Positions 16,317 through 62,071 of a stretch of 64,000 nt of DNA are shown here, one piece after another. The stretch lies in the IMG/VR virus record IMGVR_UViG_3300031555_003397; one strand, 5' to 3'. The DNA is from a virus. Its lineage: Duplodnaviria; Heunggongvirae; Uroviricota; Caudoviricetes. The position numbers and the translations under genes are program-made. A model generated the notes under the pieces. The model saw only the letters and a program-made list of their open reading frames with translations, had not been told where the DNA came from and searched no databases. Position 1 is the first letter of the stretch; every line of letters begins with the position of its first letter.

Positions 16317-16390
16317 CCTCCTTTTATTTACTAAATAAAAGTGGTATTTCAATCATAATAATAAAGAAAAGAGGGATTGTAAAATCCCTC

Positions 16391-18212: not shown

Positions 18213-18223
18213 ATTTTACTCCT

Positions 18224-23732: not shown

Positions 23733-24506
23733 TTACTCCTCAATTCCCATATAAAAGTTTTGACTTGTAAATAACCACCAATCTAATTCACCAGTTTTAT
23801 CATACTTGTCCCACCGAGCAATAATAGCTTCTACATCTTCATATTCTTGATAAAATTGTTCTACATAAGGCCGCTCAATCCGGTCTGCATGATAATGACC
23901 AAATAAATAATATTTCCAATTGACTTTATCTTTTAATTCATCAAGCCATATTTCCATAGATTTATCTACGGTAGACTGGTCAATACCATTGAGAAACAAG
24001 TCAGTAGGTTCCCAAGAGAGTGGGCAAGTGTGAGAAAGAATAAAATCAACGGATTCGCCCTGGACTTCTTTCATAATAGCGTTCATTTCTGCGACAGTTA
24101 GACATTCATCCTTAAACCAACCACATTTCTTTGGGTCTGCAGTATCTGCTTCATCCTGAGAATAACCAGCCCGCGCAAGCCGATACCACTTGTCGATAGA
24201 ATAAGCGCCACCAACCACCAAGGTAGAGTAACCACATAAGTTATAAATTTTGCCATCAATAAAATACCGAATATTGGGGAAAACCTCTTCCATCCACACA
24301 GCATTATCAACATTTATATCTTCAATTTGAATCATATTTTTAACAAGTTCTGGCCGCTGTTCATGGTTGCCCCGGACACAATAAATATGATAACCCATAG
24401 AATTAAGAAGTTTTTTATATTTTTTATCAGTATTATTCAACCAAAAATTCAAACCACTATCACCAAGAATTACAACCATGGTTTCCTCTGGTTTATATTC
24501 AGGCAT
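23733..24506 (-). CDS. Calcineurin-like metallophosphoesterase
   Basis: GDSG...GNHE...GHYH motifs. Confidence 0.55.
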   Translation of the reverse strand: MPEYKPEETMVVILGDSGLNFWLNNTDKKYKKLLNSMGYHIYCVRGNHEQRPELVKNMIQIEDINVDNAVWMEEVFPNIRYFIDGKIYNLCGYSTLVVGGAYSIDKWYRLARAGYSQDEADTADPKKCGWFKDECLTVAEMNAIMKEVQGESVDFILSHTCPLSWEPTDLFLNGIDQSTVDKSMEIWLDELKDKVNWKYYLFGHYHADRIERPYVEQFYQEYEDVEAIIARWDKYDKTGELDWWLFTSQNFYMGIEE

Positions 24507-24597
24507 ATTCCGCTGAATATTACCAATCCGGCTAATAGTTGCTACACCGCCATGAGTATCACTAACCTGTGATTAAACAATTCTTAATCACACTCAA

Positions 24598-25377
24598 TCA
24601 CCTTACCCTTTCCAGAAGATACTTATCACCCATAATATCTTCCAATGTAATTTTATTTAATTTTGTATAAGGTATACGAACAAGCGGATAACCCTTGTCT
24701 GCACAAAAATCATTCTTTATTTTATCTCTTTCTTGAATAGCTTCTAACGAATCACTATTACTCCACCAAGCTTCTGGTCCAACAAAATGTTGACGTCCAT
24801 CGAATTCAATAAATCTAACTGGATTTTCAAATTTATCATCGTAGATAATAAAATCAAAACGAAGTCTTTTGCCAGTTTCTTTAACCAGTTCTGGCAATGG
24901 GCTATCATAGTAATAATTTATATTATTACTATCTAATATTTGCTATATTTGATATTCGCCAAGTGATGATATGCATTTTCCACAAGACTAGGTCTATCCT
25001 TGTTTCAAAGAATTACCCATTACTTCTTTTGTTTCACCACAATCACATTGACATTTATACCAACGACGATTGTGCCCAGGTATCTACTATTTAAATCCAA
25101 TGTCTTCAACTACAACAAGTTTACCAAAGCGGGTCCCCGGCTAAATTTTGTTATTTTCTGACTACTCATAATTAAAATTAATTAAGCCTATACTTTTTCT
25201 ACAACCACAAGATTTGGTATTACCACTTGTTAAAGAACCAATTGGAATCTTTACGATATTACCACAGCTACACTTACATTCCCATAAATACTAACTACCT
25301 TTTTTCTCTTCTAGACGTCTTAAAGCAGTAAGCCATCCAAAAACTTGATTACTTATATCTTTCGGTTTACCGGCCAT
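24598..25377 (-). CDS. Vsr/DUF559-like PD-(D/E)XK endonuclease with N-terminal Cys clusters; several in-frame TAG (including tandem TAG TAG)
   Basis: C-terminus RFDFIIYDD..RFIEFDGRQHF. Upstream frame MAGKPKDISNQ... is broken only by TAG. The frame join is uncertain. Confidence 0.35.
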
Positions 25378-25478
25378 TTTATTTACCTCCATTTTAATCT
25401 GAATATAAGTAAATAAAATCATAACAGACTTTATATTTTTAAGTCACCAGTTATATTTTTATAATCAAAAATGCTTAA

Positions 25479-26264
25479 TCATCTTTTACTCCTATACTCC
25501 ATGATTTCATAATCAAGACTTGCTGCCATAAAATCCTTTGAAATCTTATCAATTAGTACGCCAGTTTTTTCATTAATTACGTCTTCTGTCTTGGCTAAAT
25601 ACCTATCAACTAAAAGATTAATAGCCTCAATGCTATCGCGCATCATACGCATACCAGTTTCTTTATCTTCTGGCGCAACAAACTCACCATATTTAACTCT
25701 CTTTAAGAAGTCAGCTTCGTCTGATACAAGAATATCTTCGTAGAACTTGCAAAGTAAATAATCCTGCGCCATTTTAGTAAGGCGGAAGATTAAAGCAAGA
25801 CTTTTTGTATTGAAGCCTTTCTTTTCGACATTGTAATATTCCTTATTTGCCATATGGCGCATTGTATCGATTGCTCTATGCGGACGATAATGCGCCACAT
25901 CCTCTCGATGGCTCCACAGATAATACCAAATTCCGGCATAGGTGTTATTTCGCACACAATACTTGGTAAAAAGAATCTCAAGGTCATTAGGATTCTGCTT
26001 CTTAACAAGTCTTAAAAACTCTCGAATATCAATCACTTTCAAATGTTCACCATTATCAAAGTGATATTCAAAATTAACAGCTTTCTTATTCAGCGCGACC
26101 TCTTCAAAAGAAGGAATCACCAGACATTTTGTGTCAACATCAGAGCTGGGGCTATCCATACCATAGTTCTGGCTACCATAAAGAAAAACGCCAACAATGC
26201 GGTCTTCTGGCACAAGTGTCTTGGCAACTTCATAATGTTCGCGCACTCTAGTCATGACGTCCAT
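25479..26264 (-). CDS. Pol-beta-type nucleotidyltransferase
   Basis: GS...DVD motif (LYGSQNYGMDSPSSDVD). Confidence 0.5.
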   Translation of the reverse strand: MDVMTRVREHYEVAKTLVPEDRIVGVFLYGSQNYGMDSPSSDVDTKCLVIPSFEEVALNKKAVNFEYHFDNGEHLKVIDIREFLRLVKKQNPNDLEILFTKYCVRNNTYAGIWYYLWSHREDVAHYRPHRAIDTMRHMANKEYYNVEKKGFNTKSLALIFRLTKMAQDYLLCKFYEDILVSDEADFLKRVKYGEFVAPEDKETGMRMMRDSIEAINLLVDRYLAKTEDVINEKTGVLIDKISKDFMAASLDYEIMEYRSKR

Positions 26265-33611: not shown

Positions 33612-35184
33612 ATTAGTAAGCATAATTACCAATATTTAACCCCTTCATTGTTGTTTTAATAGTGATACCATTACCAATTAAGTGATTAAAAACGCTTGTA
33701 TTTTTCGCAGTCGGCGCCCAAGCATGGCCCAACCATTTCCAAAATTCATTTGGTCCTCTAGATGGACCTTCATCCCAATGAATTCCAGAATTGCATATAA
33801 TTTTAGTTTCAATATTTTCAATGCATCCTTGATAGAAGGCTAATATTCTTGAACCTGGAACAAAATATTGCTAACTAATATTATAAAAACAAACTGTATC
33901 ACTAATATCGGCTATAGCAGTTCTAAGTAGCTCTGCTGTATATTCTTTTTCTAATACATCTTCTAGGTCGTAAATAGTACCAAAGTAATGTTTGTTGATA
34001 TCAGCATTGAAGAAGAAGTTAGCAAGAAATCCAGTAAAAGATTGTGAATCACCAAAATACTGCGCGACTTCGTTGGGATGCTGTTTTACTTCAATATTAC
34101 TTCGTGTGAAAGCACCATTGGGGCCTGCGTTGACAGAATAGTTTTTAACCTATATACCAAAAGCATCAAATATCTAAACGTCTTGTTTGCCCAGATTCTG
34201 ACCAACAACTTCCGCTATTGATTCATCTAGACGCCCGCCGGTTTTCAAGTAAAGATAATTAATTAATAAAGCCGTACCAAATTCACCAAATGCACCTAAT
34301 AAACCATTTCTAACATTACTACCTATAAAAAACAGATTATATCCAGAGGATAAAACCGAATCCAAAGTTGTGTCTAAGGCCTAATTAAATTCAGCGCTAC
34401 CAGAGCCACCAAAATATTGCTTTAATTCTGTGCGTATATCTCTAATTGCTTGGTCTAATTCTGCTTTAGTCTAAGTTGGATTTTCAGCCATACCCTTTTT
34501 AATATCGGCCATTGTATAGCCCCAAGGATAGGGACGGTATTTAATTATCTAAGATAATTCACTAGTTGTAACTCGATTACCTCCAAGCTCTATAGTAATC
34601 ATTTTATCTAGCTCTGTATCAGAATATAGAAAAGAAGCAAGTGCTTCAGTATTAAAAGAAGATAAATGATAATTTTTTTTCATTAGCCTATTTACCATTC
34701 TTTTAAGACTATTAACATTTCCTTTTACAGTTATGCCTAAGTCTACCGGCTATCTAAAAGCGGCGCTTAAAGCTTTTGAAATCTTGTCCATTTCGCTTTG
34801 CGCTTGATTGGTATTGATTTTAATATTTAAATCAAACTCATTCATATCTCGAGTTCCAGTCTTACCACCTATTAGCTTACTAATAAACTTAGATACATTT
34901 TCATTTGACGCTCGTCTTAAAAGTTTTCCATCATCAGAATTCATCATCATCCGTAATAAATCCATAAACTCTTCATATGAGTTACATCCAAATTTTTTAT
35001 AAAAAGCCAGCTCTTTTGCTTCCAAAGCATCTATTCCACCAGAAATAGAGTTTAATTCTTTCATTGCATCTTTGGCGTTTTTAAGAAAAGCATTAAAGCG
35101 GAAATAATGGTAATTGGTATGTAAAGTAGTATTTCCATAAGAAGCTTGATATAATTCACCCATGGTTCTATATTCATTACTCAT
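33612..35184 (-). CDS. Large structural protein candidate (~520 aa); about 9 in-frame TAG
   Basis: The 34750-35184 ORF runs through a TAG at 34750 into one frame interrupted only by TAG. The 3-prime end is approximate. Confidence 0.4.
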
Positions 35185-35320
35185 TAAATCACCTCTAATT
35201 CTAAGTAAAACAAACCAAAAAAAAGTAGAGGAAAATCATGCGATTTTCCCCTACGGTATATAAAAACTGCCTGTAATCTCATGGAGGTGGCGATGAGATT
35301 CTTAAGGCAGAATTTTCTGG

Positions 35321-36437: not shown

Positions 36438-36487
36438 ATTTAGAAAAATTGCTCCGAAACCTTTCGGCGCCGGAGCCGGAGCCTTGG

Positions 36488-36560
36488 TGAAGACGGTGGG
36501 ATTCGAACCCACACTGGATAGGGCCTAAACCTATTGCCTCTTCCGTTGGGCTACGTCTCC
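36488..36560 (-). tRNA. Type-I tRNA with Leu anticodon UAG (short variable arm)
   Basis: Anticodon stem ATAGG/CCTAT, loop TTTAGGC, variable arm CCAGT, discriminator A. Confidence 0.55.
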
Positions 36561-38897: not shown

Positions 38898-38920
38898 AAT
38901 TAAATACCTCCATATTATTG

Positions 38921-39000
38921 GTAGGGGATATCGGACTTGAACCGATACGAATAACAGTGGTTTTTGAGACCACCCCGTCTACCTATTCCAGCAATCCCCC
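38921..39000 (-). tRNA. tRNA-Leu(CAA) (type II)
   Basis: Anticodon stem GTGGT/ACCAC, loop CTCAAAA, long variable arm. Confidence 0.6.
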
Positions 39001-39736: not shown

Positions 39737-40094
39737 ATATATAGTAACCGATTCCGAAGATCCACATCGACTAGCCTTACTCAAAGGTAAAGAGGTTACT
39801 AAATATTGGTAAGAAAAATATAGGTTGAGAATATACCTAGAATTGCTACGGCTTAACACTTTTATGTTTTGAGTGCTTTTCCACTACCTTTTGGGTAGTA
39901 CCGCTCATGCCCGCAATTTGTAGTCACACCACAATGACCACAGGCTTGCTTACGCCTTTAAAGGAACGCTTACTCGATTATCACTCCACTATCAACCTTG
40001 CGGGCTGTTCACGACTGCGACCTCGTTCTAGTTTCGCTTCAATCAAATACAAGATGCTTGTGACACCTTGCATCCCTTATTGCTTACCACTAAG

Positions 40095-40330
40095 GGATTA
40101 GGACACTTTTCATCGTTCCCAATAAGAGATTTTTACTTATAACATCTGTTTTCAACACAGATTGCTCTTCCTATTGAGCTACGGACGCATATAAGAGGCA
40201 AATGTAGCTTTGCCCCGAAGTTTAAGTTTGGGGCGTCCGGTAGGACTCGAACCTACACTAAGTTATGTGACAGCAGACAGACTCTTATCGTAGTTTTCAC
40301 ACCTTTTGAGTGCAAAAATGCTACCCGCCT
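40095..40330 (-). ncRNA. Circularly permuted tRNA-like RNA 3
   Basis: T-arm GTAGG-TTCGAGT-CCTAC, then CGGACGC-C-CCA, a 43-nt loop and GCGTCCG. Then D-arm TAGCTCAATAGGAAGAGC and an anticodon-like hairpin ATCTGT-GTTGAAA-ACAGAT. Confidence 0.4.
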
Positions 40331-40702
40331 GCGTGTGCTTTCCTTTGCTTTCGTACTCACACGGATTCATCCACCATAGCAGATGAACTGGAAGTCGCCC
40401 TTGTTAGCTAAACTCGAACTAACCTTCCTACGGTTTACTGTACCTCAAACCATCCTTTTGCATTGATGCCAGTCGCTTGCGGCAACGAACTTTCTCTGCC
40501 AGTTGGCCCTCGAAAGCTCACTTCACATCATCAAGTTTGAGTTAGGACACGGGGGACGTATCCGAAAAGGTCTTTTCAACCTCAGCCAGTCCCGGCACGT
40601 TTTGCTTGGTTTACCGCTCGTCACGGCGGGGCTTTGTCAGTTTCCCCTTTCCTCTCCCTTACGGGAGTCTATCAGCCAAGCCTGGATAGACAAGCTATCT
40701 GG

Positions 40703-42732: not shown

Positions 42733-42806
42733 TTGCTGTAAGCGTCTATGGTCCTCCTGGGTAGGATTGAACTACCAACCTCGCGATTATAAGTCGCGGG
42801 CTCTAA
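42733..42806 (-). tRNA. tRNA-Ile(TAT)
   Basis: Anticodon stem CGCGA/TCGCG, loop CTTATAA. Confidence 0.6.
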
Positions 42807-42901
42807 CCTATTGAGCTACAAGAGGATAAAAGGGAGGTTCCGTACTCCCACCTATGCTAATGATAGGACGTCAAGAGCTATATTAAACCTCTTGACACTG
42901 G

Positions 42902-43626: not shown

Positions 43627-43663
43627 AGAAAACTCCTTTTAAGACATTCTAGGCGCCTTTTCG

Positions 43664-43734
43664 TTCTAAAAAACGGATTCGAACCGTCAATGACAAATTA
43701 CAAGTTTGTTGTTTAACCTTTAAACTATTTCAGA
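43664..43734 (-). tRNA. tRNA-Thr(TGT)
   Basis: D-stem GTTT/AAAC, anticodon stem ACAAA/TTTGT, loop CTTGTAA. CCA not encoded. Confidence 0.55.
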
Positions 43735-44233: not shown

Positions 44234-45247
44234 ATAAAAGAGTTTAACCTTTATCCACTCTAAAGGTACTCGCATTAAGACTCATCGAGCTTACCTGTTC
44301 TATTTATATACCGCTCCCAGCGTAAACGGTTGTTGCTCCATCCTTTAACTATTCAGACTTCATAGCAACTATTTAACTCAATAAAATCGTACGGACCTTC
44401 GCCCTACCAACTGTTTAACCTTCGCTCATATTCGACCAGTGAGGAGACACGGTCTGAGCCATAGGTAGCGACCCTATGACTTCCGGCCCCAGAAGCCTTC
44501 CAGCTTCCCTGGCACCTCCACGTAGTGACCCACTCAATGTGGGATAAGCGCTTGATGCTTCTAAATCTCACGTAGGAATGATTACCTACAACTTTCACCC
44601 GCCATTCAGAAATATCTTTTGCAATTTGATTCTATTACAAAACTATAATCATCCAAGCATTATTGTTATTTGCGATTGGGCTACTCGTACCACAACCTTG
44701 TCTTATATCCGGATTACTCCGTCATCAACGCAAACTTCCTTATTGGTGTACCTTGGTCTGGAACAGTCACCAACTAATCCCTAACAAGGCTTATTCCCCC
44801 ACAGGGGCGTCTATTGCGGAAGCGACAAGACAGTGTCTTTGAACGCGATTATGTCAGCACACCCCTCCATCCAAGACCTCAGTTCTGAGGCGGAACTCAT
44901 ATCTCACGATACAAGCCCTCTACCTAGTGTTGGCTATCGTCAACACGCTTGCATTTCGGACTCCTGGCGCCCACGGGCAGGATTGGGTTCTCGGCACGAT
45001 GGTATTCGCTCTGCACCGAGTTGTACAAATTTTATCAAGTTGCATGATGATTCAGTCGAAAGCGTCCTCGCCATTCCTATTCGGATGCGGGCATCATCAT
45101 GAGGACTTATAAAACAAAGGCTTAGGTTTCGCTAGGAGAACTATTCCGCACGGAACTCGCTCCTTCCCTATCCGGGAACCACCCTTGAAGCAGCATCTCT
45201 AGGCTTCTTCCTTTGTTATGTTTTAATTACAAGACGCGAAATTTGTG

Positions 45248-45321
45248 TCCTAAAACCGGACTCGAACCGGTGATTGCTCTCTTGGAAGGAAAGTGTTTAA
45301 ACCATCTAAACTATTCAGGAA
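45248..45321 (-). tRNA. tRNA-Gly(TCC) copy 1
   Basis: Loop CTTCCAA, D-stem GTTT/AAAC. Confidence 0.55.
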
Positions 45322-46601: not shown

Positions 46602-47009
46602 TTATTTGCTAAGAACCTCCTTAGCAATATAATCTTTGGCAAAACAAATGTTTTTAATTTGCCCATTTTTTGTTGGGACTAATCTCAAAGATTTTTCTCT
46701 GGACCCACATTCTGCTATAGGAATTAAATAACATTCATCATTAAACCAAGTACAAAAATAATCAATTTCTGACTGATAAGAACGACGATTTGCGCCATCT
46801 CTTGTAATGTGCGAAGAGCAAGTTTCAAAAGAAATTTTTTCTCCATCGCTCTTTGAAGTTTTTACTTGAATTCTTAATAATTTACCCTCATAATCAAGGA
46901 TAAAATCATACCGTGCAGGACTTTCTGGAGTAGAAACCATGTATCCCAACTCTAAAAAATAAGTCTTGCATTTTAACTCTGTTATTGTTCCTCTTAAATT
47001 ACTATCCAT
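46602..47009 (-). CDS. PD-(D/E)XK-family putative homing endonuclease (paralog 2)
   Basis: YDFILDYEGKLLRIQVKTS. Confidence 0.45.
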   Translation of the reverse strand: MDSNLRGTITELKCKTYFLELGYMVSTPESPARYDFILDYEGKLLRIQVKTSKSDGEKISFETCSSHITRDGANRRSYQSEIDYFCTWFNDECYLIPIAECGSREKSLRLVPTKNGQIKNICFAKDYIAKEVLSK

Positions 47010-47043
47010 TAAAATATCTTAACAAATATGTCTCATTCGATAC

Positions 47044-47117
47044 GAACCAAATAGGTCTAATGGTGCCTAAGGTAAGATTTGAACTTACGACCCCTACCTT
47101 ATGAGGGTAGTGCTCTA
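47044..47117 (-). tRNA. tRNA-Met/Ile2(CAT) copy 3
   Basis: Anticodon stem CTACC/GGTAG, loop CTCATAA. Confidence 0.6.
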
Positions 47118-47196
47118 ACCATCTGAGCTACGTAGGCATTTAGAGAGGGTCTTGTGGAATACGCCCCACTCGCTGCGGTGACCCTCAGTACCGTGG

Positions 47197-47269
47197 TCCA
47201 AGTGACAGGTCTCGAACCTGCGGCCTCGTGATCCCAAATCACGCGCTCTACCAGCTGAGCTACACCTGG
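47197..47269 (-). tRNA. tRNA-Pro(TGG)
   Basis: Anticodon stem CGTGA/TCACG, loop TTTGGGA. Confidence 0.65.
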
Positions 47270-47272
47270 ATA

Positions 47273-47425
47273 TCACTCAACTTCCTTGCGCGCCTTATCT
47301 TTCTCGCGTCCGCGATTGTAGACAGCGCCCTTACCTTTTTTGGCTTCAACCTTAGAGCCACGACGTCTAAACTGAAGATACTGCTGAAGCTCTTCGCCGG
47401 TTTTCTTCATATATTCCTTGCCCAT
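47273..47425 (-). CDS. Small basic protein (50 aa)
   Basis: ATG 47425 to TGA 47273. Not in the ORF track. Weak call. Confidence 0.25.
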   Translation of the reverse strand: MGKEYMKKTGEELQQYLQFRRRGSKVEAKKGKGAVYNRGREKDKARKEVE

Positions 47426-47797
47426 TAGAGTTACTCCTTTCAAGGTTTTTATTAACTAGACGGATAAAAAGATACGTTTATAAACCCCAATTATATGTTG
47501 TCTTTAAAGATATAGTTGCTGTGTCCGTCTAAATAAGCCTTACGCTTCATTGTATAAATATTATACTTTAAAATTGAGCAAAAATCAAATTTTTTAACTC
47601 AATGATGTATCAATCTCTACATCTACGCATAAGCGTGACCGCATCATTTGAGTGAAGGAACGACAGAATCCATTAACTGTTGACCACTTTGAAATGATTG
47701 ATACATCATTCAATTAAAAATGGGGTCTTGGTGTGGGTGGGTAGCACCACACATTTCCCAGCCAGCAGGCGTTTTCTTCTTAAACTACAAGACCTGG

Positions 47798-47883
47798 CAC
47801 GGGTGGTTGGGATTCGAACCCACGTGGTGCTTACGCACACGAGTTTTGGAGACTCGCGCCATCGACCGCTAGGCGACACCCGC
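47798..47883 (-). tRNA. Unusual tRNA with Trp anticodon CCA but type-II body (long variable arm, G73)
   Basis: Anticodon stem CGAGT/ACTCG is perfect, loop CTCCAAA. Variable-arm hairpin GTGCGTAAGCAC. Length 86 nt. Confidence 0.5.
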
Positions 47884-47886
47884 ATA

Positions 47887-48630
47887 TTAAATTTTATTCC
47901 ATTCTTCATCAGAATAAAGTTTGATTTCTTTGATTTTTGAGGGCAATTTTTCTGCTATGCACCATTTACGAATTGCATTATCAGATACCCCAAACTTTTT
48001 ACCAATTGTGGTAAAAGGAGTGCTTCTGATAAGATTTTTTAATTCCTCTCGTGAAGGTCTTCTGCTTCGATTTGTTTTATTTACACATTCTACAGAACAA
48101 TATTTATCTTGAGAAGGCTTTAATTTTTTACCACAGCAAAAACAAAACCGTTCTTTTTTACGAAGCGGATAAGTATAATCTTCTTGTATACGTGTTTTTC
48201 CAGTATTTATTTCACTAATTGTATCAATACCAACATTATACCTTTCAGCAATTTTACCTAAAGATATATCAGTATTTATAAGCAAATCATAAATTTCAAC
48301 CAATGATTCTGTAGAAATTTTTACGCAACAATTTGAAGTACCCGCCCCACCAATTGTTTGATTATATCCATTATTGTAACTATCATATAACGCAATATAA
48401 TACTTTTCTAAACTATTTAGTTCGGTATGAGAACATTCCACAAGAACTTCAAAGTCAAAATTATCTATTCCATATTCTCTAATTGCAATATATAATGGAG
48501 CATTATAACTTTGCTCTTTAGCCATTTGACGATGAGCGCGCCATCTGCGAGAAATATCAATAGACTGCCCTATATAACATTGCCCTGTAATTTTATTTGT
48601 AATTTTATAAATTCCAACCATTCTTATCAC
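47887..48630 (-). CDS. GIY-YIG homing endonuclease with C-terminal zinc finger / NUMOD-like region
   Basis: GIYKITNKITGQCYIGQS. Confidence 0.6.
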   Translation of the reverse strand: MIRMVGIYKITNKITGQCYIGQSIDISRRWRAHRQMAKEQSYNAPLYIAIREYGIDNFDFEVLVECSHTELNSLEKYYIALYDSYNNGYNQTIGGAGTSNCCVKISTESLVEIYDLLINTDISLGKIAERYNVGIDTISEINTGKTRIQEDYTYPLRKKERFCFCCGKKLKPSQDKYCSVECVNKTNRSRRPSREELKNLIRSTPFTTIGKKFGVSDNAIRKWCIAEKLPSKIKEIKLYSDEEWNKI

Positions 48631-48706
48631 CTTCTAATTATAAGTAGGGTTTCAATTTATAAAATACATAAAATTGAACCAAGAGTAAAATTTTTGGAAT
48701 ACTATG

Positions 48707-48792
48707 GAGGAAGAAGTGGGATTCGAACCCACGGAACCTTTCAGTTCGCCACCTTTCCAAGATGGTGCCATCGGCCACTCGGCCATTCTTCC
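48707..48792 (-). tRNA. tRNA-Ser(GGA) (type II)
   Basis: Acceptor GGAAGAA/TTCTTCC, loop TTGGAAA, long variable arm. Confidence 0.6.
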
Positions 48793-48797
48793 ATTGG

Positions 48798-48871
48798 GGT
48801 GAAGGACGAGAATCGAACTCGCAACTACTGGAACCACAATCCAGGGTTCTACCTATTGAACTACCGACACC
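48798..48871 (-). tRNA. tRNA-His(GTG)
   Basis: G-1 and C73 present. Loop TTGTGGT. Two mismatches in the acceptor stem. Confidence 0.5.
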
Positions 48872-48919
48872 AGGTGCCCCGCCATTTTTAAGGTCTAACG
48901 GGCTGACCTAAGAAGTAAA

Positions 48920-49231
48920 TCACTTCATTTTGTAATAGTGATACCAAGTACGGTACTCTTCTTTGGGGTCTGGAGGAGCATCATGATGCCAACGTCTATA
49001 ATGGTCACAGTAAAACCAATCATATTGACGTTGCCAATACTCTTCCCAATCACAAAGCCAACCATAATCGCAAATTTCCCAACTTTCAAACAGATGTTTG
49101 AATTGAGAAGGTTTAAGAGTTATTTTGGGATTTCTCTTGAGATACTGACGCACTCTATGGTTAGCCAATCTCTTGAGTTCCTTATCTTTCTTATCTCCGC
49201 AATATGCGTGCTTCTTGTAACTTCTGCTCAT
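48920..49231 (-). CDS. Small basic Trp/Tyr-rich protein
   Basis: ORF. GC-rich terminator hairpin 49261-49365 downstream. Confidence 0.4.
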   Translation of the reverse strand: MSRSYKKHAYCGDKKDKELKRLANHRVRQYLKRNPKITLKPSQFKHLFESWEICDYGWLCDWEEYWQRQYDWFYCDHYRRWHHDAPPDPKEEYRTWYHYYKMK

Positions 49232-49449: not shown

Positions 49450-50170
49450 CATAGATTCCATTTTGCGTTCGTTTTTCAATACCCTCAACGCCTAGACGCT
49501 CTATGATAGATTTTCACTATCCATTGTCATGTGCTTAGTTCTATCGAGTTGGTCTGCGTTGCCACTCCTTGCCAACCACGCCAAGGCCGTTTTACTGCCA
49601 AAAACTTCATCTATGTGTTTACCCTTCACCAGACCGCATTTCAACCGAGCAAGGCAGTAAGACCATTGTGCGGCAGTGGCTCCAGAAACTTTAAAAACTC
49701 TTATCGGTGTCCTATTATATAAATTCCACTCTTACTAGCGCCAGCTCTTTCACTACTGGGCGCGGGTCGCCTTATTACTTTCGGCGCCGTCTTGACCAGC
49801 AAGCTCTTCTCGTCTTGCAGGACTGCTTTCTCTGATTTTCGGGTGGAGGATATTCGAAGCTACCCTCAAGCTCACTCATTTCACCCTAGGCACTTTCAAG
49901 GTATGCCTTACGTCGCGGCTTGGGCATCTTGCCGCAGTTCAATTTTCTTTCAGCGGAATTATCAAACCATTCCGCCTAATTGGTCTGTGGATATGAACCA
50001 ATAACCCTAAATAGACTCCACAAACGCACTCAAACCAATCGAATACGTTGCTTCACGGTCGCCTCGGTCTATCTTGTAGCCGACGCACCCAAGTATTTCT
50101 CACTTGGTAAGAGCCGTGCTTTATCATCCACGGCGATGGTTGGTTTAAATTACGAACCTTTTAAAGCCAA
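49450..50170 (-). ncRNA. Large structured noncoding RNA (~700 nt) with RNase-P-RNA-like sequence blocks
   Basis: No ORF. The minus strand has CCTTGAAAGTGCC, AGGGTGAAATGAGTG and CTCCACCCG in the same order as the J11/12-P12 region of bacterial RNase P RNA. The P4 helix was not identified. Confidence 0.25.
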
Positions 50171-50699: not shown

Positions 50700-50858
50700 T
50701 AAAAATTCCTCCTCTTTGTTTCTAAATATAAGTAGAATTACAAAGAAAATAGTACAATTTTCCAGTCCAAATTTCAGTCTAAAAATTTAACTAGACGCAA
50801 TATAAGTTTGACAATTTAGCAGATTGTTCCTTGAAAAGTTTGCTGTGTGCGTCTGTGG

Positions 50859-50930
50859 CGGGGGCGGTGAGAATCGAACTCACATCTGCGGTTTTAGAGA
50901 CCGCGGTCCTGGCCTTTGAACGACACCCCA
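50859..50930 (-). tRNA. Amber suppressor tRNA, anticodon CUA, Gln-like identity (tRNA-Sup/Gln(CTA))
   Basis: Perfect anticodon stem GCGGT/ACCGC, loop CTCTAAA (plus-strand TTTAGAG at 50893-50899). U1/C72 unpaired, G2-C71, G3-C70, G10, G73, CCA encoded. Confidence 0.65.
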
Positions 50931-51066: not shown

Positions 51067-51153
51067 ATATCAAACAATTCTAGACACATAATACTTATCA
51101 GATTTACAGTCTAATTTTTCCAGTATGTTACATTTGCTGTGAGTGTCTTATGG

Positions 51154-51226
51154 TAGCCCCGATGGGATTCGAACCCATACTGGAAGGATTTTAAGTCCTC
51201 TGTCTCTGCCGTTGGACTACGAGGCC
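51154..51226 (-). tRNA. Type-I tRNA with Leu anticodon UAA (short variable arm); paralog of 36488-36560
   Basis: Loop CTTAAAA. Shares the AACGG D-loop, CCAGT variable arm and T-arm with the UAG tRNA. Discriminator A. Confidence 0.55.
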
Positions 51227-54437: not shown

Positions 54438-55262
54438 TTACTCCTCTCCCTTGTATTTCCATTTGTAACCATATGCTGTCTTTCTTTCGCCCCTAGCGCA
54501 TCTATTTATTGGAGTACCACTGCTTACTCCTAACTCTCTCGCGGCAGCCTCGCAACTTGGAAATTCTGCCAAAAAATTATTATTTAAATCAAACTACGTA
54601 ACTTTTTTGCCAGTAGTTTTCCTCTCTTTAGTTAATAGATAATCTTCTATTGGCGTTTCATCTTCTACATATTTCCAAATATAACCACTGCTACTTTTTA
54701 ATTTACCGTTACAACAGGCAATAATATTAGAGCCATTTGTCTGCCCTGTAGCCCTACCTGCTTCCGAAGCAGATTCAAAAATTTGTATAAAATCGCCTTC
54801 TTTTGAAAACTAAATCACTGGTTTGGCGTGTATTCTATTATGAATTTCTTTGTGACTAACAGAATTTGCGCGTAATATATTTTGAATTGTTCCATCGCTA
54901 GCGCCAGTAATTTTACTCAACTCCTATGGAGTTTTCCCATCAAGCCACAACTAATACACTTCATCGTAGTTATACTTGGTCGCACCTTCTCCGCCTAATG
55001 TAGAATTATATCCATTGTGGTAAGAATCATAATAAGCAATCCAAAATTTTTCTCTTTCAAAACGATTAGCAAAATCACATTCTTCAATTTGTTTAATCTG
55101 AAAATGTTCTATCCCGTACTTTCGCATTGCTAATTGTAATTTAAAATTTCTTTTATAAAGATCTTGAATATGTTTAATCCAGCGATGTTCTATCCCGATT
55201 GCCGTTTCACCAACATAAACTTTGTCATTTATATCATTTATAATTTTATATATAAAAGCCAT
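54438..55262 (-). CDS. GIY-YIG homing endonuclease with NUMOD-like C-terminal repeats; about 4 in-frame TAG
   Basis: FIYKIINDINDKVYVGET..RWIKH. Reads through the TAG at 54951 to TAA at 54438. Confidence 0.5.
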
Positions 55263-55270
55263 TAAAATGC

Positions 55271-55314
55271 CTCCGGTCTTTCTTTCTACTTATAAGTAGA
55301 AAGAAAGACCGGAG
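55271..55314. repeat. Perfect 44-bp palindrome between the Ro60 gene and a GIY-YIG gene
   Basis: ctccggtctttctttctacttataagtagaaagaaagaccggag. Contains ACTTATAAGTAG. Confidence 0.8.
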
Positions 55315-55337: not shown

Positions 55338-56906
55338 TTAAATACGAATTTTCTCGTACGCCTTTCCATTCAAAATGGAAACCATATAATCATATGCAGT
55401 CATACCATTTAAGGCCCTCACAAGATTCTTAAATGTAGAGGCAGACTGACCAGATACCAAAATAACATCTTCTCTATTAGAGAGAAAGGTGTCATTCCGC
55501 GCATTAATATTCCAAAGAATTAACTTGGGACATTCGTATCCAGCCGCACGGAACTTAGTTTCTAGAGTATCCATAAAATCAAATCGAGCGTTGGGTCTAA
55601 AATAAGAGTCAATCTCCATATCGCTCAGTACCAACAAAGCCTTAGGCATTTCATTCTTAGGAACTCGATTTGCAATGGCAACACGCAAAATTTCCTGCAT
55701 ACCCTTCATTAGATTAGTGCTATATCCAACTCCTGCGCTTGCAGTTTTTTGCACTGCCTCAAGAAGAGAGCAGCCTTCGCGCAGATTAATAAAATGAGGA
55801 TTATCAGTAAAAGTCATGTATTGATTGCGATAAGCTCCGACATTATGCTGTGCAAGATAGATGGCCAAGGCAATAGAAGAGGCCATAGGCCGCCCTCTCA
55901 TAGAGCCACTCACATCAGCCATAGCGACAATATTCAGTCCTTCATTAATATAGTTAGGCAGAGCCTTCCACTGAGCTTCAACAACCTCGTCCAGCTTATC
56001 GTTGATGATGCAGTCACCATAGCAACGACCGCTGTAACCTCTACCCATATACTTCTCGACCAGGTCGTAAGGATACAGAGTAGCGGCGTTAATCTTGACC
56101 TCACCCTTAGATACGCTCTTCAGGTAAGCGTCAAAACGCTCATGGTCATGCTTAGCAAATGCAGAACCGTAGTTGTGCATTGCGTAAGAAGGAACCTTAG
56201 CGTAATCAATCAGACCCCACTCGCCAGCGGACATCTGACGCTCAACAACATTGATGTGCTTACGCAGCGCGGACAGCATCTTACGATACTTACGAGGCTC
56301 TAGGTGCAGGGCACGCATAGCCTTAGTAGCCATCTGACGAGTCTTCACAGAGGAAGTGTTCTCAGAAGGCATCCACTTTGCCAGCAGGGAAACAGGAACA
56401 ACCTTGGTAGCAGTAGAGGCGTTGTAAGCCTTCATATCAGCAGCCAGAGTCTTAGCGACATTTTCCCACATCAGCTTTTCGCACTTGGTGCCGCACAGAA
56501 CGAACCAAGAGTCGAAACGGTTGAAGTAAGGAATCAGCTCAATGTTCTTGTTTACGATTCCGGGATAGTTTTCTGCCAGCCAGCGCAGGCAGACGCGGAA
56601 GGTACGACGCTCACCCAGGCCACCCTGGCGAATATCGCCGGAGTAGAACAGCATCTTGGTTGCCAGCAGCTTATCCTCTCGGAAAGCAGCAGCAAACTTC
56701 TGCTCGATTTCACGATCAGTACGAGGACGCAGTGCGCCAATCTGAGAGAACAGATCCAGCAGAGCACCCTGTGCAGTGGAATCATAGGCAGCAGCGCCAT
56801 TTTCAGTCAGCTTATGGGTACCTTCACGATACATAGCAGTTGCAAAATTCATTTTACATTTCTCCTTTTCACTCACAAAGTTTTTGTTTTGAAAAGCTAG
56901 GCGCAA
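55338..56906 (-). CDS. rsr: Ro60-like (TROVE domain + vWA/MIDAS) RNA-binding protein
   Basis: N-terminal T.NGA.A..ST....L..LF pattern of TROVE. MIDAS motif ADVSGSM, then vWA. Length 522 aa. Confidence 0.6.
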   Translation of the reverse strand: MRLAFQNKNFVSEKEKCKMNFATAMYREGTHKLTENGAAAYDSTAQGALLDLFSQIGALRPRTDREIEQKFAAAFREDKLLATKMLFYSGDIRQGGLGERRTFRVCLRWLAENYPGIVNKNIELIPYFNRFDSWFVLCGTKCEKLMWENVAKTLAADMKAYNASTATKVVPVSLLAKWMPSENTSSVKTRQMATKAMRALHLEPRKYRKMLSALRKHINVVERQMSAGEWGLIDYAKVPSYAMHNYGSAFAKHDHERFDAYLKSVSKGEVKINAATLYPYDLVEKYMGRGYSGRCYGDCIINDKLDEVVEAQWKALPNYINEGLNIVAMADVSGSMRGRPMASSIALAIYLAQHNVGAYRNQYMTFTDNPHFINLREGCSLLEAVQKTASAGVGYSTNLMKGMQEILRVAIANRVPKNEMPKALLVLSDMEIDSYFRPNARFDFMDTLETKFRAAGYECPKLILWNINARNDTFLSNREDVILVSGQSASTFKNLVRALNGMTAYDYMVSILNGKAYEKIRI

Positions 56907-57429: not shown

Positions 57430-58125
57430 TCAAATTTTATAAGCCCACAAATAACCACCAGAAGTTTTTTGTTTACCAAGACAGCAATTATATATTCCAG
57501 TTTTACTAATTCCTACACTATCTGCGGCAGTTTTTACATTATCATATTCAGCAATTAAATTACCTTTCATATCATACTAGAATACCTTCTTATTATTTTT
57601 TCTAGCAATCTCTATTGTTTTTTCTTCTTTTTTAAGACCTTGTTGCCATTCCCATTTAAAGCCGCCACTACTTTTTGTATTTCCATTACAGCATTTGCGT
57701 ATATTAGATGGATGAATTCTCACTTCATCTGCGGCTTCCTATACAGTGTTAAAAATCTTTAAAAACTATCCTTCTAAAGTATATTGTATTACTGCAGCTC
57801 CATGATTTATTTTTTCTTTAATTTTTTCTTGACCGCCAATAGTGGAATTATACCCATTATTGTAACTATCATAATAGTTTATCCAATATTTTTCCTTAAT
57901 ATCCAATTCTGAATTTTGACATTCTTCTAAAATTTCCGGAGTAAAATTATTTTCACCATATTTAATTATCATTCTATGAAATAAAGGAAAGCTTTGTCTA
58001 ATACCATCAAGAGCTTCTCTAGCTTCTTTTTTATGCTACTCCCATCTTTGGTTTAAAGTTTTGGAAGTCTATCCAATATAAACTTGATTAGTTACTTTAT
58101 TTGTTATTTTATATATAATACCCAT
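57430..58125 (-). CDS. GIY-YIG homing endonuclease; several in-frame TAG
   Basis: MGIIYKITNKVTNQVYIG*TSKTLNQRWE*H. Stop TGA at 57430. Confidence 0.45.
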
Positions 58126-58239
58126 ATTATCTCCTCCATATTTTACTAATATTAAGTAAAATAAATACGCGCAGAATATATAAAAAGCGTAAAAAGAATG
58201 GGAAGTTTCCTTCCCATTCGCATCAAAATTTCTCAAAAA

Positions 58240-59532: not shown

Positions 59533-60107
59533 TTAAAGTTGTTGTAGTTAATGGCCGTCCAGAAAGCGGCAAAACTACTTTTGAAATGAAGTGTAGAGAA
59601 CTGGTTGATGCTAGTAGCACTTTCTGGTTTGATGAAAATAAAAGAATGGTAGTTGATACCATTTCTACTATTGATTTCATCAAACAAATTGCTACTGAAT
59701 GTGGATGGGATGGAGTTAAGACACCCCGTAACCGCAAGTTCCTGAGTGATTTAAAGGATTTACTAACTGAATGGAACGATGTTCCTTATCAGAAAATTCT
59801 TGACCATATCGAATATATGCAAGAATTTGGTAAACTGTATGATTGGATTTTATTCGTTGATTGCAGAGAACCAAAGGAAATTCAGAAGCTCAAGGAACGA
59901 CTTAATGCAACTACTGTACTTGTACGGCGCCTTGGCGATGAAGTAAATAAAACTTCTAATCATGCTGATGCAAATGTTTTTGAATATGAATATGATTATA
60001 CAATCAAGAACTATGGTGATTTAAGTGACCTAGTTGTTGAATGTACAGGGTTTTTGGATTTTATGAAGGAGAGGGATTGTTTTGAGAATCGGAAATATGA
60101 TTTTTGA
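59529..60107 (+). CDS. P-loop kinase (T4 dNMP-kinase-like)
   Basis: VVVNGRPESGKTT. Confidence 0.45.
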   Translation: MIKVVVVNGRPESGKTTFEMKCRELVDASSTFWFDENKRMVVDTISTIDFIKQIATECGWDGVKTPRNRKFLSDLKDLLTEWNDVPYQKILDHIEYMQEFGKLYDWILFVDCREPKEIQKLKERLNATTVLVRRLGDEVNKTSNHADANVFEYEYDYTIKNYGDLSDLVVECTGFLDFMKERDCFENRKYDF

Positions 60108-61185
60108 GGAACTGGATGCTGAGAAGTATTGGAGCTGGCCTTCTAGTTTTAAGGGGGATCCTAAAGAGGAAACTCGCAATATGATTTTTTCTGGTAACTA
60201 TCTGGGCGCGCGAAAGATGGATGGTGCCTATTATAGATTCATTAAAGATTTTGAAGGAAATATGCGCTTACAGGGTCGTTCTCGTTCTGTTAATGGTCAT
60301 TATCTGGATAAGCTAGACCATGTTCCTCATCTGATGGATTTCTTTAATGAGCTACCTAATGGTACCTGTTTGCTGGGCGAGATTTACTTTCCCACTCATG
60401 AAGGTTCTAGTGAAGTAACAAAGATTATGGGTTGTTTAACTCCCAAGGCTATTGAGCGTCAGTCTAAAGGTGATAAGCTTCATTATTACATTTTTGACAT
60501 TTGGGCTTGGGAAGGCGAGTCTTATATGGACAAAGTTTGTGAAGATAGATTTGATGAACTAAACGCTTGCTCTCGCGCGTATGCAAGTGAATATGTAGAG
60601 TGGGCAGAATATTTCCAGGGTAAAGAGCTTTGGACTCATCTTCAGACTATTCTTGCAAATGGCGGCGAAGGTATTGTTATGACTAAGAAAGGAACTGTGC
60701 CTCAGCCTGGTAAGCGTCCTGCTCGTAAAACTCTTAAAGTAAAGAAGGAACTGGCCGAAAATATTGACTGTTTCTTTACTGGTCGCGCCACTTCTCCTAC
60801 TCGTTTGTATAATGGCAAGGAGTTGGAGACTTGGAAGTATTGGGTAAGAATTCGTGATAATCAGAAGCTCGAAGGCGCCTTCTATGAAAATTATAAGAAT
60901 GGTGAAGCCATTGAGCCTGTTACTAAGCCTTATTTTTATGGCTGGGCTGGTAGCCTTGAAATTGCTGTGCTGAAAGATGGCGTCGAAACTCCTATTGGTT
61001 TCTTGAGTGGCCTTAGTGATGAAATCAAGGCTAATCCTAAGGATATGCGTCATAGATGTATCGAGGTTGCAGCAATGGAAGTCTATCCAGATACTAGAGG
61101 CTTGCGTCATGGAAAGTTTAAATGTTTTCGTCCCGATTTAACTCCTGCAGATTGTATCTGGGATAAAATTTTCTCCGATAACTGA
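60082..61185 (+). CDS. ATP-dependent RNA/DNA ligase
   Basis: Motif I KMDG, III LLGEIYF, IV GGEGIVMTKK, V LKVKKE. Confidence 0.6.
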   Translation: MRIGNMIFEELDAEKYWSWPSSFKGDPKEETRNMIFSGNYLGARKMDGAYYRFIKDFEGNMRLQGRSRSVNGHYLDKLDHVPHLMDFFNELPNGTCLLGEIYFPTHEGSSEVTKIMGCLTPKAIERQSKGDKLHYYIFDIWAWEGESYMDKVCEDRFDELNACSRAYASEYVEWAEYFQGKELWTHLQTILANGGEGIVMTKKGTVPQPGKRPARKTLKVKKELAENIDCFFTGRATSPTRLYNGKELETWKYWVRIRDNQKLEGAFYENYKNGEAIEPVTKPYFYGWAGSLEIAVLKDGVETPIGFLSGLSDEIKANPKDMRHRCIEVAAMEVYPDTRGLRHGKFKCFRPDLTPADCIWDKIFSDN

Positions 61186-61237
61186 GATTTCTATACATAT
61201 CGCCCACTATTATCACTTATTTTTAGAGGTGATAATA

Positions 61238-62071
61238 GTGGGTTTTATTTATAAAATAACAAACAAAATAAATAACAAGATTTATATTGGATAGACCTGC
61301 CGAGATTTATAGACTAGATGGTGTGAACATAAAAGCAGGGCAAATTGTGAATATAATAATTATTTATATAATGCAATAGCAAAATATGGCGCAGAAAATT
61401 TTACTATAGAACAAATAGAAGAAATTAAGACTGATCTTCTTGATGAAAGAGAAATTTATTGGATTGCTTTTTACGATTCAAATAATCCCAAAATAGGATA
61501 TAATTTAACAATTGGAGGACAAGGTAAAAAGAATTATCGTACTGATAAAATTAGAGAATTGTGGGATTCTGGAAAAAGTATTGGAGAAATAACTGAAATT
61601 TTATAGTGTGATAAGGGCACAGTGCGCGAATCTTTACTAAGCCATGAAACTTATTCAATTCATGAAAGTCTTTCGCGCAGAAAAACCCAGCGAAAAGGAG
61701 TAAATAAATATTCATTAGATGGTATATTTATACAACATTATAATTCAATTTTAGAAGCAGCTAATTATGATAAAAATATAGCTAGCGGGATAGGTGGATG
61801 CTGTAACAAAAGACACGCTTAGGCTTACGGTTTTCAATGGCGCTTTGAAGATGATGAACCGCCTCAAGCATTAAATAATATTAAATTTGGTAAAAGAACA
61901 ATATAGTAGATAAGCCTTGATAATATAGAGCTATAGATATTTCAATCTGCTGCCGAAGCTGCACGTCAAGTTGCTCCCGGACGCAATGTAAATTCAGCGA
62001 GTAGTCAAATCATTCAAGTATGTAAGGGGAAGAGACAAACTGCTTATGGATATAAATGGCAATATAAATAA
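61238..62071 (+). CDS. GIY-YIG homing endonuclease; about 7 in-frame TAG (including tandem TAG TAG)
   Basis: GTG start. GFIYKITNKINNKIYIG*T.RDL*TRW.EH. Confidence 0.45.

Follow-up and report, generated by a model that had tools for sequence, protein, structure and literature searches.

A phage tRNA(CCA) gene with an extra arm: a probable tRNA-Trp on a class-II-type core

In the textbook account, a tRNA's long variable arm is reserved for the leucine, serine, bacterial tyrosine and selenocysteine isotypes (Leu, Ser, Tyr and Sec). The Caudoviricetes virus record IMGVR_UViG_3300031555_003397 (Duplodnaviria; Heunggongvirae; Uroviricota) contains a tRNA gene that combines such an arm with the anticodon CCA, that of tryptophan (Trp), and the locus raises the question of which amino acid this tRNA carries and why it has the arm. 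We analysed a 64,000-nucleotide stretch of the record, referred to here as the window. A first-pass annotation of the window had described the gene as a Trp anticodon on a class-II, Ser-like body, and had left it as either a decoder that inserts Ser at UGG or a structurally odd tRNA-Trp. The evidence favours the latter description, and we consider it probable that the gene encodes a functional phage tRNA-Trp on a class-II-type core, i.e. a Trp-accepting decoder of UGG.

The tRNA(CCA) gene and the conservation of its fold

ARAGORN, run on the window, places a tRNA-Trp (cca) on the minus strand at 47795-47883, and Rfam matches RF00005 to 47798-47883 with 45.9 bits as compared to a gathering score of 29, at an E value of 1.3e-06 over the window as a whole and of 3.7e-09 for the local stretch. 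When the tRNA stretch was searched with cmscan at E values up to 10, RF00005 was the sole tRNA-clan model displayed, two weaker overlaps from the same clan being suppressed. The gene lies in an array of 36 minus-strand tRNA genes at 35.3-51.2 kb as called by ARAGORN (35 tRNA matches in Rfam) in which each of the 20 amino acids is represented, Trp by the 47795-47883 gene alone. The first-pass annotation had found no class-I tRNA-Trp, and this stands: CCA occurs once among the 36 ARAGORN and 35 Rfam tRNA calls in the 64-kb window, and no class-I tRNA-Trp is present among them.

The gene is 89 nucleotides (nt) long and consists of an 86-nt body followed by an encoded 3' CCA (47795-47797). Read directly, its 5' half is GCGGGUG-UC-GCCU-AGCGGUCGA-UGGC-G-CGAGU-CUCCAAA-ACUCG and its 3' half is U-GUGC-GUAA-GCAC-CAC-GUGGG-UUCGAAU-CCCA(A)C-CACCCGU-G-CCA; all of its parts lie on the minus strand. 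The acceptor stem is formed by GCGGGUG (47877-47883) and CACCCGU (47799-47805), which yield the pairs G1·U72, C2-G71, G3-C70, G4-C69, G5-C68, U6-A67 and G7-C66, and direct reading places the discriminator G73 at 47798. In the Rfam alignment the D-arm (47858-47874) has a 3-bp GCC/GGC stem, a U13·U22 mismatch and a loop, AGCGGUCGA, that contains A14, G18 and G19; it is of class-II type, with 20 nt across positions 8-26 and a loop of 9-11 nt. The anticodon arm CGAGU-CUCCAAA-ACUCG (47840-47856) carries the anticodon at 47847-47849 and is closed by U31-A39. The variable region, again by direct reading, spans 16 nt (47824-47839) and comprises a U, a hairpin and CAC; the 12-nt hairpin GUGC-GUAA-GCAC (47827-47838) has four base pairs, a GNRA tetraloop at 47831-47834 and an energy of -4.4 kcal/mol. 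Its 16 nt and 4-bp hairpin depart from the class-I architecture, in which the variable loop is 4-5 nt long. The T-arm GUGGG-UUCGAAU-CCCA(A)C (47806-47823) has five base pairs, with A 47807 bulged from the 3' strand. Both the Rfam alignment and RNAalifold applied to related sequences give a 7/5 acceptor/T branch plus one bulged nucleotide, and U8 is unable to pair with C78 or A77; a 4-bp T-stem of the 8/4 or 9/3 kind, for which the first-pass annotation had suggested a check, is thus not what was found. What that annotation had read of the CCA anticodon, the anticodon arm (a perfect stem and a CUCCAAA loop), the hairpin-bearing 16-nt variable region and G73 was recovered by ARAGORN, Rfam and direct reading, and its class-II-like body is borne out by the extra arm, the 20-nt D-arm region, the non-Watson-Crick 13:22 position and a D-arm nearer to those of Ser and Tyr.

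The minimum free energy (MFE) structure of the single sequence, at -32.0 kcal/mol, differs from the cloverleaf (-29.3 kcal/mol; z = -1.0). Because single-sequence folding is uninformative for tRNA, covariation was used instead, in an alignment of 30 members of a family of long-arm tRNA(CCA) genes, the gathering of which is described below. The cloverleaf with its extra arm leaves 91.3% of the alignment cells paired, as compared to 64.2% after shuffling and 33-45% with slid partners, and its covariation score is 0.754 versus 0.223 for shuffled alignments. All seven acceptor pairs covary (98.1% of cells paired), U31-A39 is present in 30/30 members, and position 13:22 is non-standard in 22 of the 30. 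Independently, RNAalifold recovers stems of 7 bp (acceptor), 3 bp (D), 5 bp (anticodon) and 5 bp (T), the last of which pairs columns 63-80 and leaves out the extra column 79. The T-stem bulge recurs in three lineages, and its closing pair is G-C in the window, A-U in two family members (L021 and L074) and C-G with a bulged U in another (L072); because the pair differs across the bulged lineages, it covaries. RNAalifold did not call the extra arm in this alignment, in which MAFFT misaligned arms of unequal length, and the arm was tested instead by counting changes in the named structure and by an energy test that needs no alignment. In the first, each of the three outer pairs of the arm stem has both sides changed in 9-14 sequences. 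In the second, the 86 distinct variable regions of the family have a mean z of -4.5 relative to shuffles; 81% of them form a hairpin of at least 3 bp, built from 54 different stem strands. By these results the family structure is under selection, and so is the extra arm.

The strongest single piece of evidence for a conserved, real tRNA gene comes from a comparison with L364, a human-gut metagenome contig and the only relative found in a metagenome scan, whose tRNA array is 81-100% identical to that of the window. Its tRNA(CCA) gene (L364:7164-7252) is identical to the window gene at 87/89 nt, in an array that is otherwise 81-91% identical, and the flanks of the two genes cannot be aligned within 3-4 nt of the gene ends. 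The two changes convert the tetraloop from GUAA in the window to GCGA, so a GNRA sequence is kept in both. By this comparison the tRNA(CCA) gene is a real one, well beyond a chance match, and is kept by purifying selection.

Probable tryptophan identity and its alternatives

G73 is the major determinant of tRNA-Trp in E. coli and B. subtilis, the first pair is a weak one with U72 (A1-U72), and G1-U72 is an identity element in the bacterial-type tRNA-Trp of rice mitochondria; U31-A39 is a predicted Trp determinant (PMC9976931). For serine, absolute conservation of G1-C72 and G2-C71 is described for most bacterial tRNA-Ser, and the listed antideterminants against the E. coli seryl-tRNA synthetase (SerRS) include C2-G71 (PMC9976931).

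The comparison covered distinct sequences, taken from contigs of like kinds, of long-arm tRNA-Trp (n = 90), class-I phage tRNA-Trp (n = 117) and phage tRNA-Ser (n = 120). G73 is found in 82/90 (91%), 99/117 (85%) and 99/120 of these, respectively; the first-pass annotation had counted G73 as foreign to tRNA-Trp, a view at odds both with these frequencies and with its role as the major bacterial determinant. The pair at 1:72 is A-U or G·U in 76% of long-arm and 66% of class-I phage tRNA-Trp (G·U alone in 26/90 and 18/117), as compared to G1-C72 in 90% of tRNA-Ser. At 2:71 both Trp groups contain a mixture of G-C, C-G and U-A (27, 32 and 23, respectively, in the class-I set), whereas 94% of tRNA-Ser have G2-C71, and at 3:70 both are mostly G-C, whereas 86% of tRNA-Ser have A3-U70. 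With G1·U72, C2-G71, G3-C70 and G73, the window tRNA fits the Trp profile and departs from tRNA-Ser at all three pairs. Its acceptor is nearest to those of long-arm and class-I tRNA-Trp, tRNA-Ser scoring far lower, and class-I Trp is the nearest acceptor group for 65 of the 90 long-arm tRNA(CCA).

The body of the molecule has other affinities. Among the 90 long-arm sequences the nearest D-arm is a Ser one in 33 cases and a Tyr one in 30, that of class-I Trp being nearest in only 5, and the D-arm region measures 20-21 nt, as in class-II tRNAs, versus 18-19 nt in class-I Trp. The extra arm of the window tRNA has a 4-bp stem, as compared to a mean of 5.4 bp in phage tRNA-Ser, and is followed by a 3-nt 3' spacer that is present in 26/91 long-arm Trp, 8/29 Tyr and 3/51 Ser sequences, the usual length in Ser being 1-2 nt. 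GNRA caps are found on 32/91 long-arm Trp, 19/51 Ser and 23/54 Leu arms and are thus a generic feature of such arms, not one specific to Trp. A Trp-type acceptor end and anticodon arm are joined here to a class-II-type core whose D-arm lies near those of Ser and Tyr, so that the window tRNA is, in form, a chimera.

The genes bear indirectly on which enzyme would charge it, and also on what UGG means in this phage. No aminoacyl-tRNA synthetase is present among the 81 open reading frames (ORFs) of the 64-kb window, and no sequence resembling tryptophanyl-tRNA synthetase (TrpRS) was found in the window or in any fetched locus; a TrpRS-like match occurs in 39 of 50,697 phage records, none of them a Caulobacter phage, the group that includes the cultured family member described below. 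With none found in the window, the fetched loci or the Caulobacter phages, the host TrpRS is most likely the charging enzyme. Over 77 crudely defined ORFs the codon share of UGG is 1.99%, versus 0.67% expected from positional base composition, and the depletion for which the first-pass annotation had suggested a check is not seen. In an alignment of the phage PnuC to that of Neisseria, a solved structure (4QTN; E = 3.8e-36), at least seven UGG-encoded Trp residues fall on Trp of 4QTN. Depletion or reassignment of UGG was rejected on these two grounds; UGG, used at conserved Trp positions, means Trp in this phage, and a decoder that inserts Ser there would do harm.

In the reading that we favour, host TrpRS would charge the long-arm tRNA with Trp by way of its anticodon, G73 and weak 1:72 pair, and the charged tRNA would read UGG on the ribosome, with the extra arm staying in the mature molecule and the amino acid unchanged. 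More tentatively, the arm may be kept since it makes the phage tRNA-Trp unlike the class-I tRNA-Trp of the host, an unlikeness that, by analogy with other phage tRNAs, could protect it from host nucleases that target tRNA. Several points weigh against this reading. The T-stem bulge, the G·U at 1:72 and the U·U at 13:22 are all unusual, and the Rfam score of the gene is the second lowest among the window's 35 Rfam tRNA matches. Its C2-G71 pair is inverted with respect to the G2-C71 preferred by B. subtilis TrpRS (G3-C70, G4-C69 and G5-C68 are present). Finally, the family is a biased sample, as the pattern used to collect it fixes the CUCCAAA loop and the GGTTCGAATCC T-loop.

Of the alternatives, the one that survives best, which we nevertheless regard as improbable, is a non-translational tRNA-like RNA that decodes hardly or not at all and serves as a decoy or sponge for a host toxin that targets tRNA or as a handle for an RNA or protein factor of the phage. 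Such an RNA would have no need for U72 and G73, and here the identity positions are conserved along with the anticodon loop, U33, the T-loop and the encoded CCA, in a gene without which the 20-amino-acid tRNA set would lack Trp alone. What speaks for it is that the arm and the T-stem bulge might hamper use by EF-Tu or the ribosome, that the window contains RNA-repair genes and large ROOL and GOLLD RNAs inside the tRNA array, and that there are parallels: a function as decoy or supplement has been proposed for phage tRNA-Tyr (PMC13096335), and some irregular tRNAs are charged yet unused in translation (PMC5389517).

Slightly less probable again is a missense or ambiguous decoder, in which the long arm and G73 would recruit SerRS and Ser, or a mixture of Ser and Trp, would be inserted at UGG, as the first-pass annotation had envisaged. 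Serine identity is mainly arm-dependent and blind to the anticodon, and anticodon mutants of tRNA-Ser mistranslate (PMC9976931); the window tRNA has the long arm, G73, a Ser-like D-arm and a C11-G24 pair, and its best full-length BLAST match among cultured phages is a tRNA-Ser. However, its acceptor end is not of Ser type, as it is without G1-C72, G2-C71 and A3-U70, which are present in 86-94% of the 120 phage tRNA-Ser, and carries the anti-SerRS pair C2-G71; the arm stem is short and its three unpaired 3' nucleotides are uncommon in Ser, while the family keeps U72 and G73 as class-I Trp does. The frequent use of UGG for conserved Trp argues against Ser insertion as well, as do a fold that is 7/5, not 8/4 or 9/3, and the cognate, non-G73 discriminators kept by other long-arm isotypes (see below). 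Least probable of all is a decaying tRNA-Trp or tRNA-Ser copy damaged by insertion and point mutations, which the lowish Rfam score of 45.9, the irregular 1:72 and 13:22 positions, the T-stem bulge and the non-cloverleaf MFE structure (z = -1.0) might suggest, but which is opposed by the 87/89 nt kept relative to L364 between unrelated flanks in an array that is otherwise 81-91% identical, the family-wide covariation of the arm, the bulge in three lineages with a covarying closing pair, and a cloverleaf energy of -29.3 kcal/mol, as compared to -32.0 kcal/mol for the MFE structure.

A phage-enriched family and comparable tRNAs

The family was gathered from public viral contigs with a pattern in which 18-32 nt separate a CUCCAAA loop from a GGTTCGAATCC T-loop after it, and all counts from the contig scans are lower bounds. 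At least 119 viral loci match the pattern, ARAGORN calls at least 112 tRNA(CCA) genes at these loci, and at least 105 of those genes are 81-92 nt long, with 78 distinct sequences among them. Together with a few members from genome assemblies, at least 90 distinct long-arm tRNA(CCA) with a clean acceptor parse were obtained, and the viral contigs behind them number more than 100. The same pattern was applied to 596 Gb of bacterial and archaeal assemblies; ~16 of the 120 matches listed there are long-arm tRNA(CCA), the remainder being mostly chance, and most of these cellular-assembly genes lie in arrays of 11-18 tRNAs that resemble phage contigs. Among the matches listed in a scan blind to arm length (CGGTCTCCAAAACCG), one of 109 tRNA(CCA) has a long arm, so that the long-arm form is rare, on the order of 1% of viral-contig tRNA-Trp. 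The family is defined by the CCA anticodon, G73, U72, a D-arm region of 20-21 nt, a setting within phage tRNA arrays and a variable region of 11-22 nt that contains a 3-5-bp hairpin, often GNRA-capped. The window tRNA has all of these traits, and its nearest neighbours in the family are L023, L026, L109 and L081.

One member is cultured. Caulobacter phage CcrColossus encodes an 86-nt long-arm tRNA(CCA) at NC_019406 59240-59325 that GenBank labels plain 'tRNA-Trp', and its genome paper makes no remark on the shape of the tRNA (PMC3556154). No description of a long-arm tRNA-Trp was found in the literature searched, and members stand in GenBank as plain tRNA-Trp. The best matches of window proteins, at ~43% identity, are to faecal phage fragments and Bacillus phages, which together with the human-gut contig L364 are the only leads to the host. 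Megablast of window positions 47000-49000 against the 50,697 phage records gave no match, an exact 27-mer scan of viral contigs gave none, and BLAST of a large subfamily of the family (GUAGGUG...) against cultured phages gave none either.

Long-arm tRNA(CCA) of a different type, 90-92 nt long, occur in a few cellular chromosomes, namely those of Pelagibius sp. (L213:1918-2007), a member of the Saccharibacteria (L228:3421-3512) and Agrobacterium sp. (chromosome 2; L233:2592-2681), all on the minus strand. They have a Ser-like acceptor end with G1-C72, G2-C71 and U3-A70, together with G73 and an encoded CCA. To judge from these pairs, they are better candidates than the window tRNA for a Ser body with a Trp anticodon.

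The extra arm is also found on other class-I isotypes. The same contigs contain 98 distinct long-arm tRNAs of such isotypes, and phage arrays (L004-L122) hold 16 distinct long-arm sequences for Lys, 15 for Asn, 12 each for Ile and His, 11 for Met and 6 for Cys. Cognate discriminators are largely kept. Thus, U73 is present in 5/6 long-arm and 63/63 short tRNA-Cys, A73 in 12/16 long-arm and 86/92 short tRNA-Lys, C or A in 11/12 long-arm and 59/60 short tRNA-His, G73 in 14/15 long-arm and 64/74 short tRNA-Asn, and A73 in 10/11 long-arm and 106/119 short tRNA-Met. Since the discriminators remain those of the isotype, the arm is an addition, and no switch to Ser is involved; were SerRS to charge them, anticodon and discriminator would have no reason to stay matched. 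The long-arm tRNA-Lys of Caulobacter jumbo phages (NC_019406 62021-62108; L243:3220-3309) shares ~81% identity over 72 nt with one of the long-arm Trp subfamilies, which hints that long-arm Trp and Lys share a class-II-type scaffold.

With class-I tRNA-Trp such as those of E. coli, B. subtilis and Microbacterium phage Pumpernickel the window tRNA shares CUCCAAA, U31-A39, G73, the weak pair with U72 and G3-C70, G4-C69 and G5-C68, and the acceptor and positions 8-9 of the Pumpernickel tRNA are nearly identical to its own. It differs from them in having a 16-nt variable region in place of 4-5 nt, a longer D-arm, a non-Watson-Crick 13:22 position, C2-G71 and a bulged A. With tRNA-Ser it has in common G73, a GNRA-capped arm and a D-stem of 3 bp whose loop is of the GAGYGG type, and the tRNA-Ser of Streptomyces phage BillNye is ~80% identical to it over positions 5-75; unlike tRNA-Ser, it has other pairs at 1:72, 2:71 and 3:70, a shorter arm stem, a 3-nt 3' spacer and the CCA anticodon. 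The eukaryotic V-arm tRNAs of Hamashima et al. (nev-/nov-tRNAs) likewise combine a class-II shape with the anticodon of a class-I amino acid, and in these the body reportedly dictates charging with Leu or Ser in mismatch with the anticodon. In contrast, the acceptor identity of the window tRNA matches its anticodon, and its gene is phage-borne.

The first-pass annotation had also likened the gene to allo-tRNAs and tRNA-Sec, a comparison that does not hold for its 7/5 fold and its 3-bp D-stem with a large loop. As defined by Mukai et al. 2017 (PMC5389517), allo-tRNAs divide a 12-bp acceptor/T branch as 8/4 or 9/3, and the window tRNA, which is 7/5 and is without a long D-stem capped by a tetraloop, was rejected as a member; tRNA-Sec was rejected since the anticodon is CCA and not UCA, the fold is 7/5 and not 8/5, and the D-stem has 3 bp and not 6 bp. 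Some resemblance to the allo-tRNAs and to the 8/4 tRNA-Ser and tRNA-His of alpha-proteobacterial phages is nevertheless evident in the odd body, the location in phage tRNA clusters and the long arm with a non-Ser anticodon (PMC5389517). A text search of that paper found no mention of Trp. The 8/4 tRNA-His of these phages keeps His-type identity features (PMC5389517) and, as an odd body joined to a cognate identity, is the closest precedent in print.

The tRNA array and possible roles of the extra arm

The array around the gene has several further peculiarities. Its tRNA-Leu(UAG) (36485-36560, minus strand) and tRNA-Leu(UAA) (51151-51226, minus strand) are 76 nt long, with the 5-nt variable loop CCAGU and A73; both are class-I-shaped and without an arm, the reverse of the Trp case. 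Among the tRNA-Leu of the array an extra arm is present only in tRNA-Leu(CAA) at 38919-39000, and there it is short. Of the 81 tRNA-Leu in the first set of viral loci, 23 measure less than 80 nt, and the E. coli leucyl-tRNA synthetase reportedly does not require the extra arm. The AT-rich tRNAs Thr(UGU) (43663-43734, minus strand) and Gly(UCC) (45247-45320, minus strand) begin with UC and have no encoded CCA, traits in which the other 34 array tRNAs differ from them, and they may be of different origin. ROOL (44373-45044; 296 bits), GOLLD (39822-40333; 152.8 bits, with a gathering score of 150) and drum RNA (49935-50061), all matched by Rfam on the minus strand, lie within this one tRNA array, and a ~90-nt insert inside the GOLLD match resembles part of a tRNA (GCGUCCGUAGCUCAAUAGG...). 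The corresponding stretch of L364 has no ROOL match.

A GIY-YIG homing-endonuclease gene (47887-48630, minus strand) stops 3 nt short of the start of the tRNA-Trp gene, and next to it is a tRNA-Ser(GGA) with an unusual U73 (48705-48792, minus strand). Both are missing from L364, where tRNA-Trp directly follows tRNA-His (L364:7252-7256), and positions 47887-48792 are an insertion of ~905 bp in which a homing endonuclease is accompanied by a tRNA as passenger. L364 also has a 95-nt tRNA(UAU) with a 4-bp extra-arm hairpin, GCGC-CAGAUUA-GCGC (L364:3260-3354, minus strand), in the slot that the window fills with a non-homologous 77-nt tRNA-Ile(UAU) (42749-42825, minus strand); close arrays thus swap class-I and long-arm genes of equal anticodon.

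A subset of window genes suggests a recoded stop codon. Long frames without TAA or TGA hold 4-8 in-frame TAGs at 33613-35235, 336-1691, 24598-25443, 57430-58239, 54438-55289 and 15663-16352 on the minus strand and at 61142-62071 on the plus strand. With TAG read as Gln (Q), three frames become complete GIY-YIG (+ NUMOD1) homing endonucleases, two of which have a TAG at the Q position of their conserved YIGQT motif. In-frame TAG is absent from other genes, and it terminates some crude ORFs. In this phage, TAG and not UGG is probably recoded, to Gln, and the decoder would presumably be the tRNA(CUA) at 50856-50930 (minus strand; labelled 'Pyl' by ARAGORN). That tRNA has U1·C72, G73 and a Gln-like UGGGG start, and except for C35U its anticodon arm is the commonest phage tRNA-Trp arm in a reference set enriched for that arm; this amber suppressor may be of Trp or of Gln derivation. 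The long-arm tRNA-Trp, for its part, most likely does not change the genetic code.

Why a tRNA-Trp should carry an extra arm may be related to the other genes of the window. These include an RNA-repair set of HAD_SAK_2 ('Swiss Army Knife' RNA repair), cREC_REC (a cyclic-phosphate-processing receiver), RlaP, a kinase-like AAA_33, an ATP-dependent ligase, metallophosphoesterase/phosphoesterases and a DUF2828/DUF7788 Ro-like 'RNA-binding protein' (phrog_850, E = 1.9e-117), as well as RNase H, an SPFH protein and several GIY-YIG homing endonucleases. Genes for the salvage of nicotinamide adenine dinucleotide (NAD), PnuC and a NadR-like nicotinamide mononucleotide adenylyltransferase/kinase, are also present; the RNA-repair and NAD-salvage genes occupy 17460-19635, 23733-26264, 55338-56906, 60082-61185 and neighbouring positions. 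The RNA-repair set is that of a phage contending with RNA-targeting host defences. Changes in the anticodon loop have been proposed to let phage tRNAs evade host tRNases (PMC10264068), and the tRNA-Tyr of phage T5 reportedly owes its resistance to cleavage by retron-Eco7 to a distinct variable loop (PMC13096335). The window tRNA resembles the T5 tRNA-Tyr and the VapC/PrrC escape variants in that a phage tRNA differs from the host isoacceptor where a nuclease could read it, and it is unlike T5 tRNA-Tyr and the anticodon-loop variants in that a whole arm has been added and not a loop changed; the link would be one of analogy. The anticodon loop of tRNA-Trp cannot be freely altered, because the anticodon bases are TrpRS determinants, and under this constraint a change of shape is the obvious alternative.

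It is therefore conceivable, though we hold the idea only tentatively, that the extra arm is a device of defence evasion or discrimination, selected as a disguise or as a handle. In that case a host immune nuclease might miss the long-arm tRNA, or a phage factor might recognise it specifically; the same tentative proposal would have phages repeatedly turning class-I tRNAs (Trp, and elsewhere Lys, His, Cys, Asn, Met and Ile) into class-II-shaped ones that the host synthetase still charges. It is also possible that the arm reflects neutral tolerance or has a role in processing or stability. The literature searched gave no usable statement on contacts of TrpRS with the variable-loop side of the tRNA. 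Removal of the hairpin by splicing with the phage RNA-repair or ligase enzymes was, by inference, rejected: a bulge-helix-bulge motif is absent, and the D-arm shows a co-adaptation to class-II form that would serve no purpose were the arm cut out.

As a conserved, phage-enriched tRNA-Trp on a class-II core, this family shows that the boundary between tRNA classes has been crossed in nature, apparently without a change of amino acid, and the long-arm Lys, His, Cys, Asn and Met tRNAs with their own discriminators point the same way. For annotation, such genes may draw isotype-mismatch flags, pass for recoding devices or, as in CcrColossus, receive labels without comment. They also provide a test, set up by nature, of the amount of additional structure that is tolerable to TrpRS, EF-Tu and the ribosome; such a test would be useful for engineering orthogonal or tagged tRNAs. 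In addition, they offer a concrete candidate for how a phage tRNA might escape tRNA-cleaving defences when its anticodon loop is fixed. If the arm is merely a tolerated structural variant, the family would be a modest curiosity; if it does serve to disguise the tRNA, the class boundary of tRNA would be an evolvable battleground of the conflict between phage and host.

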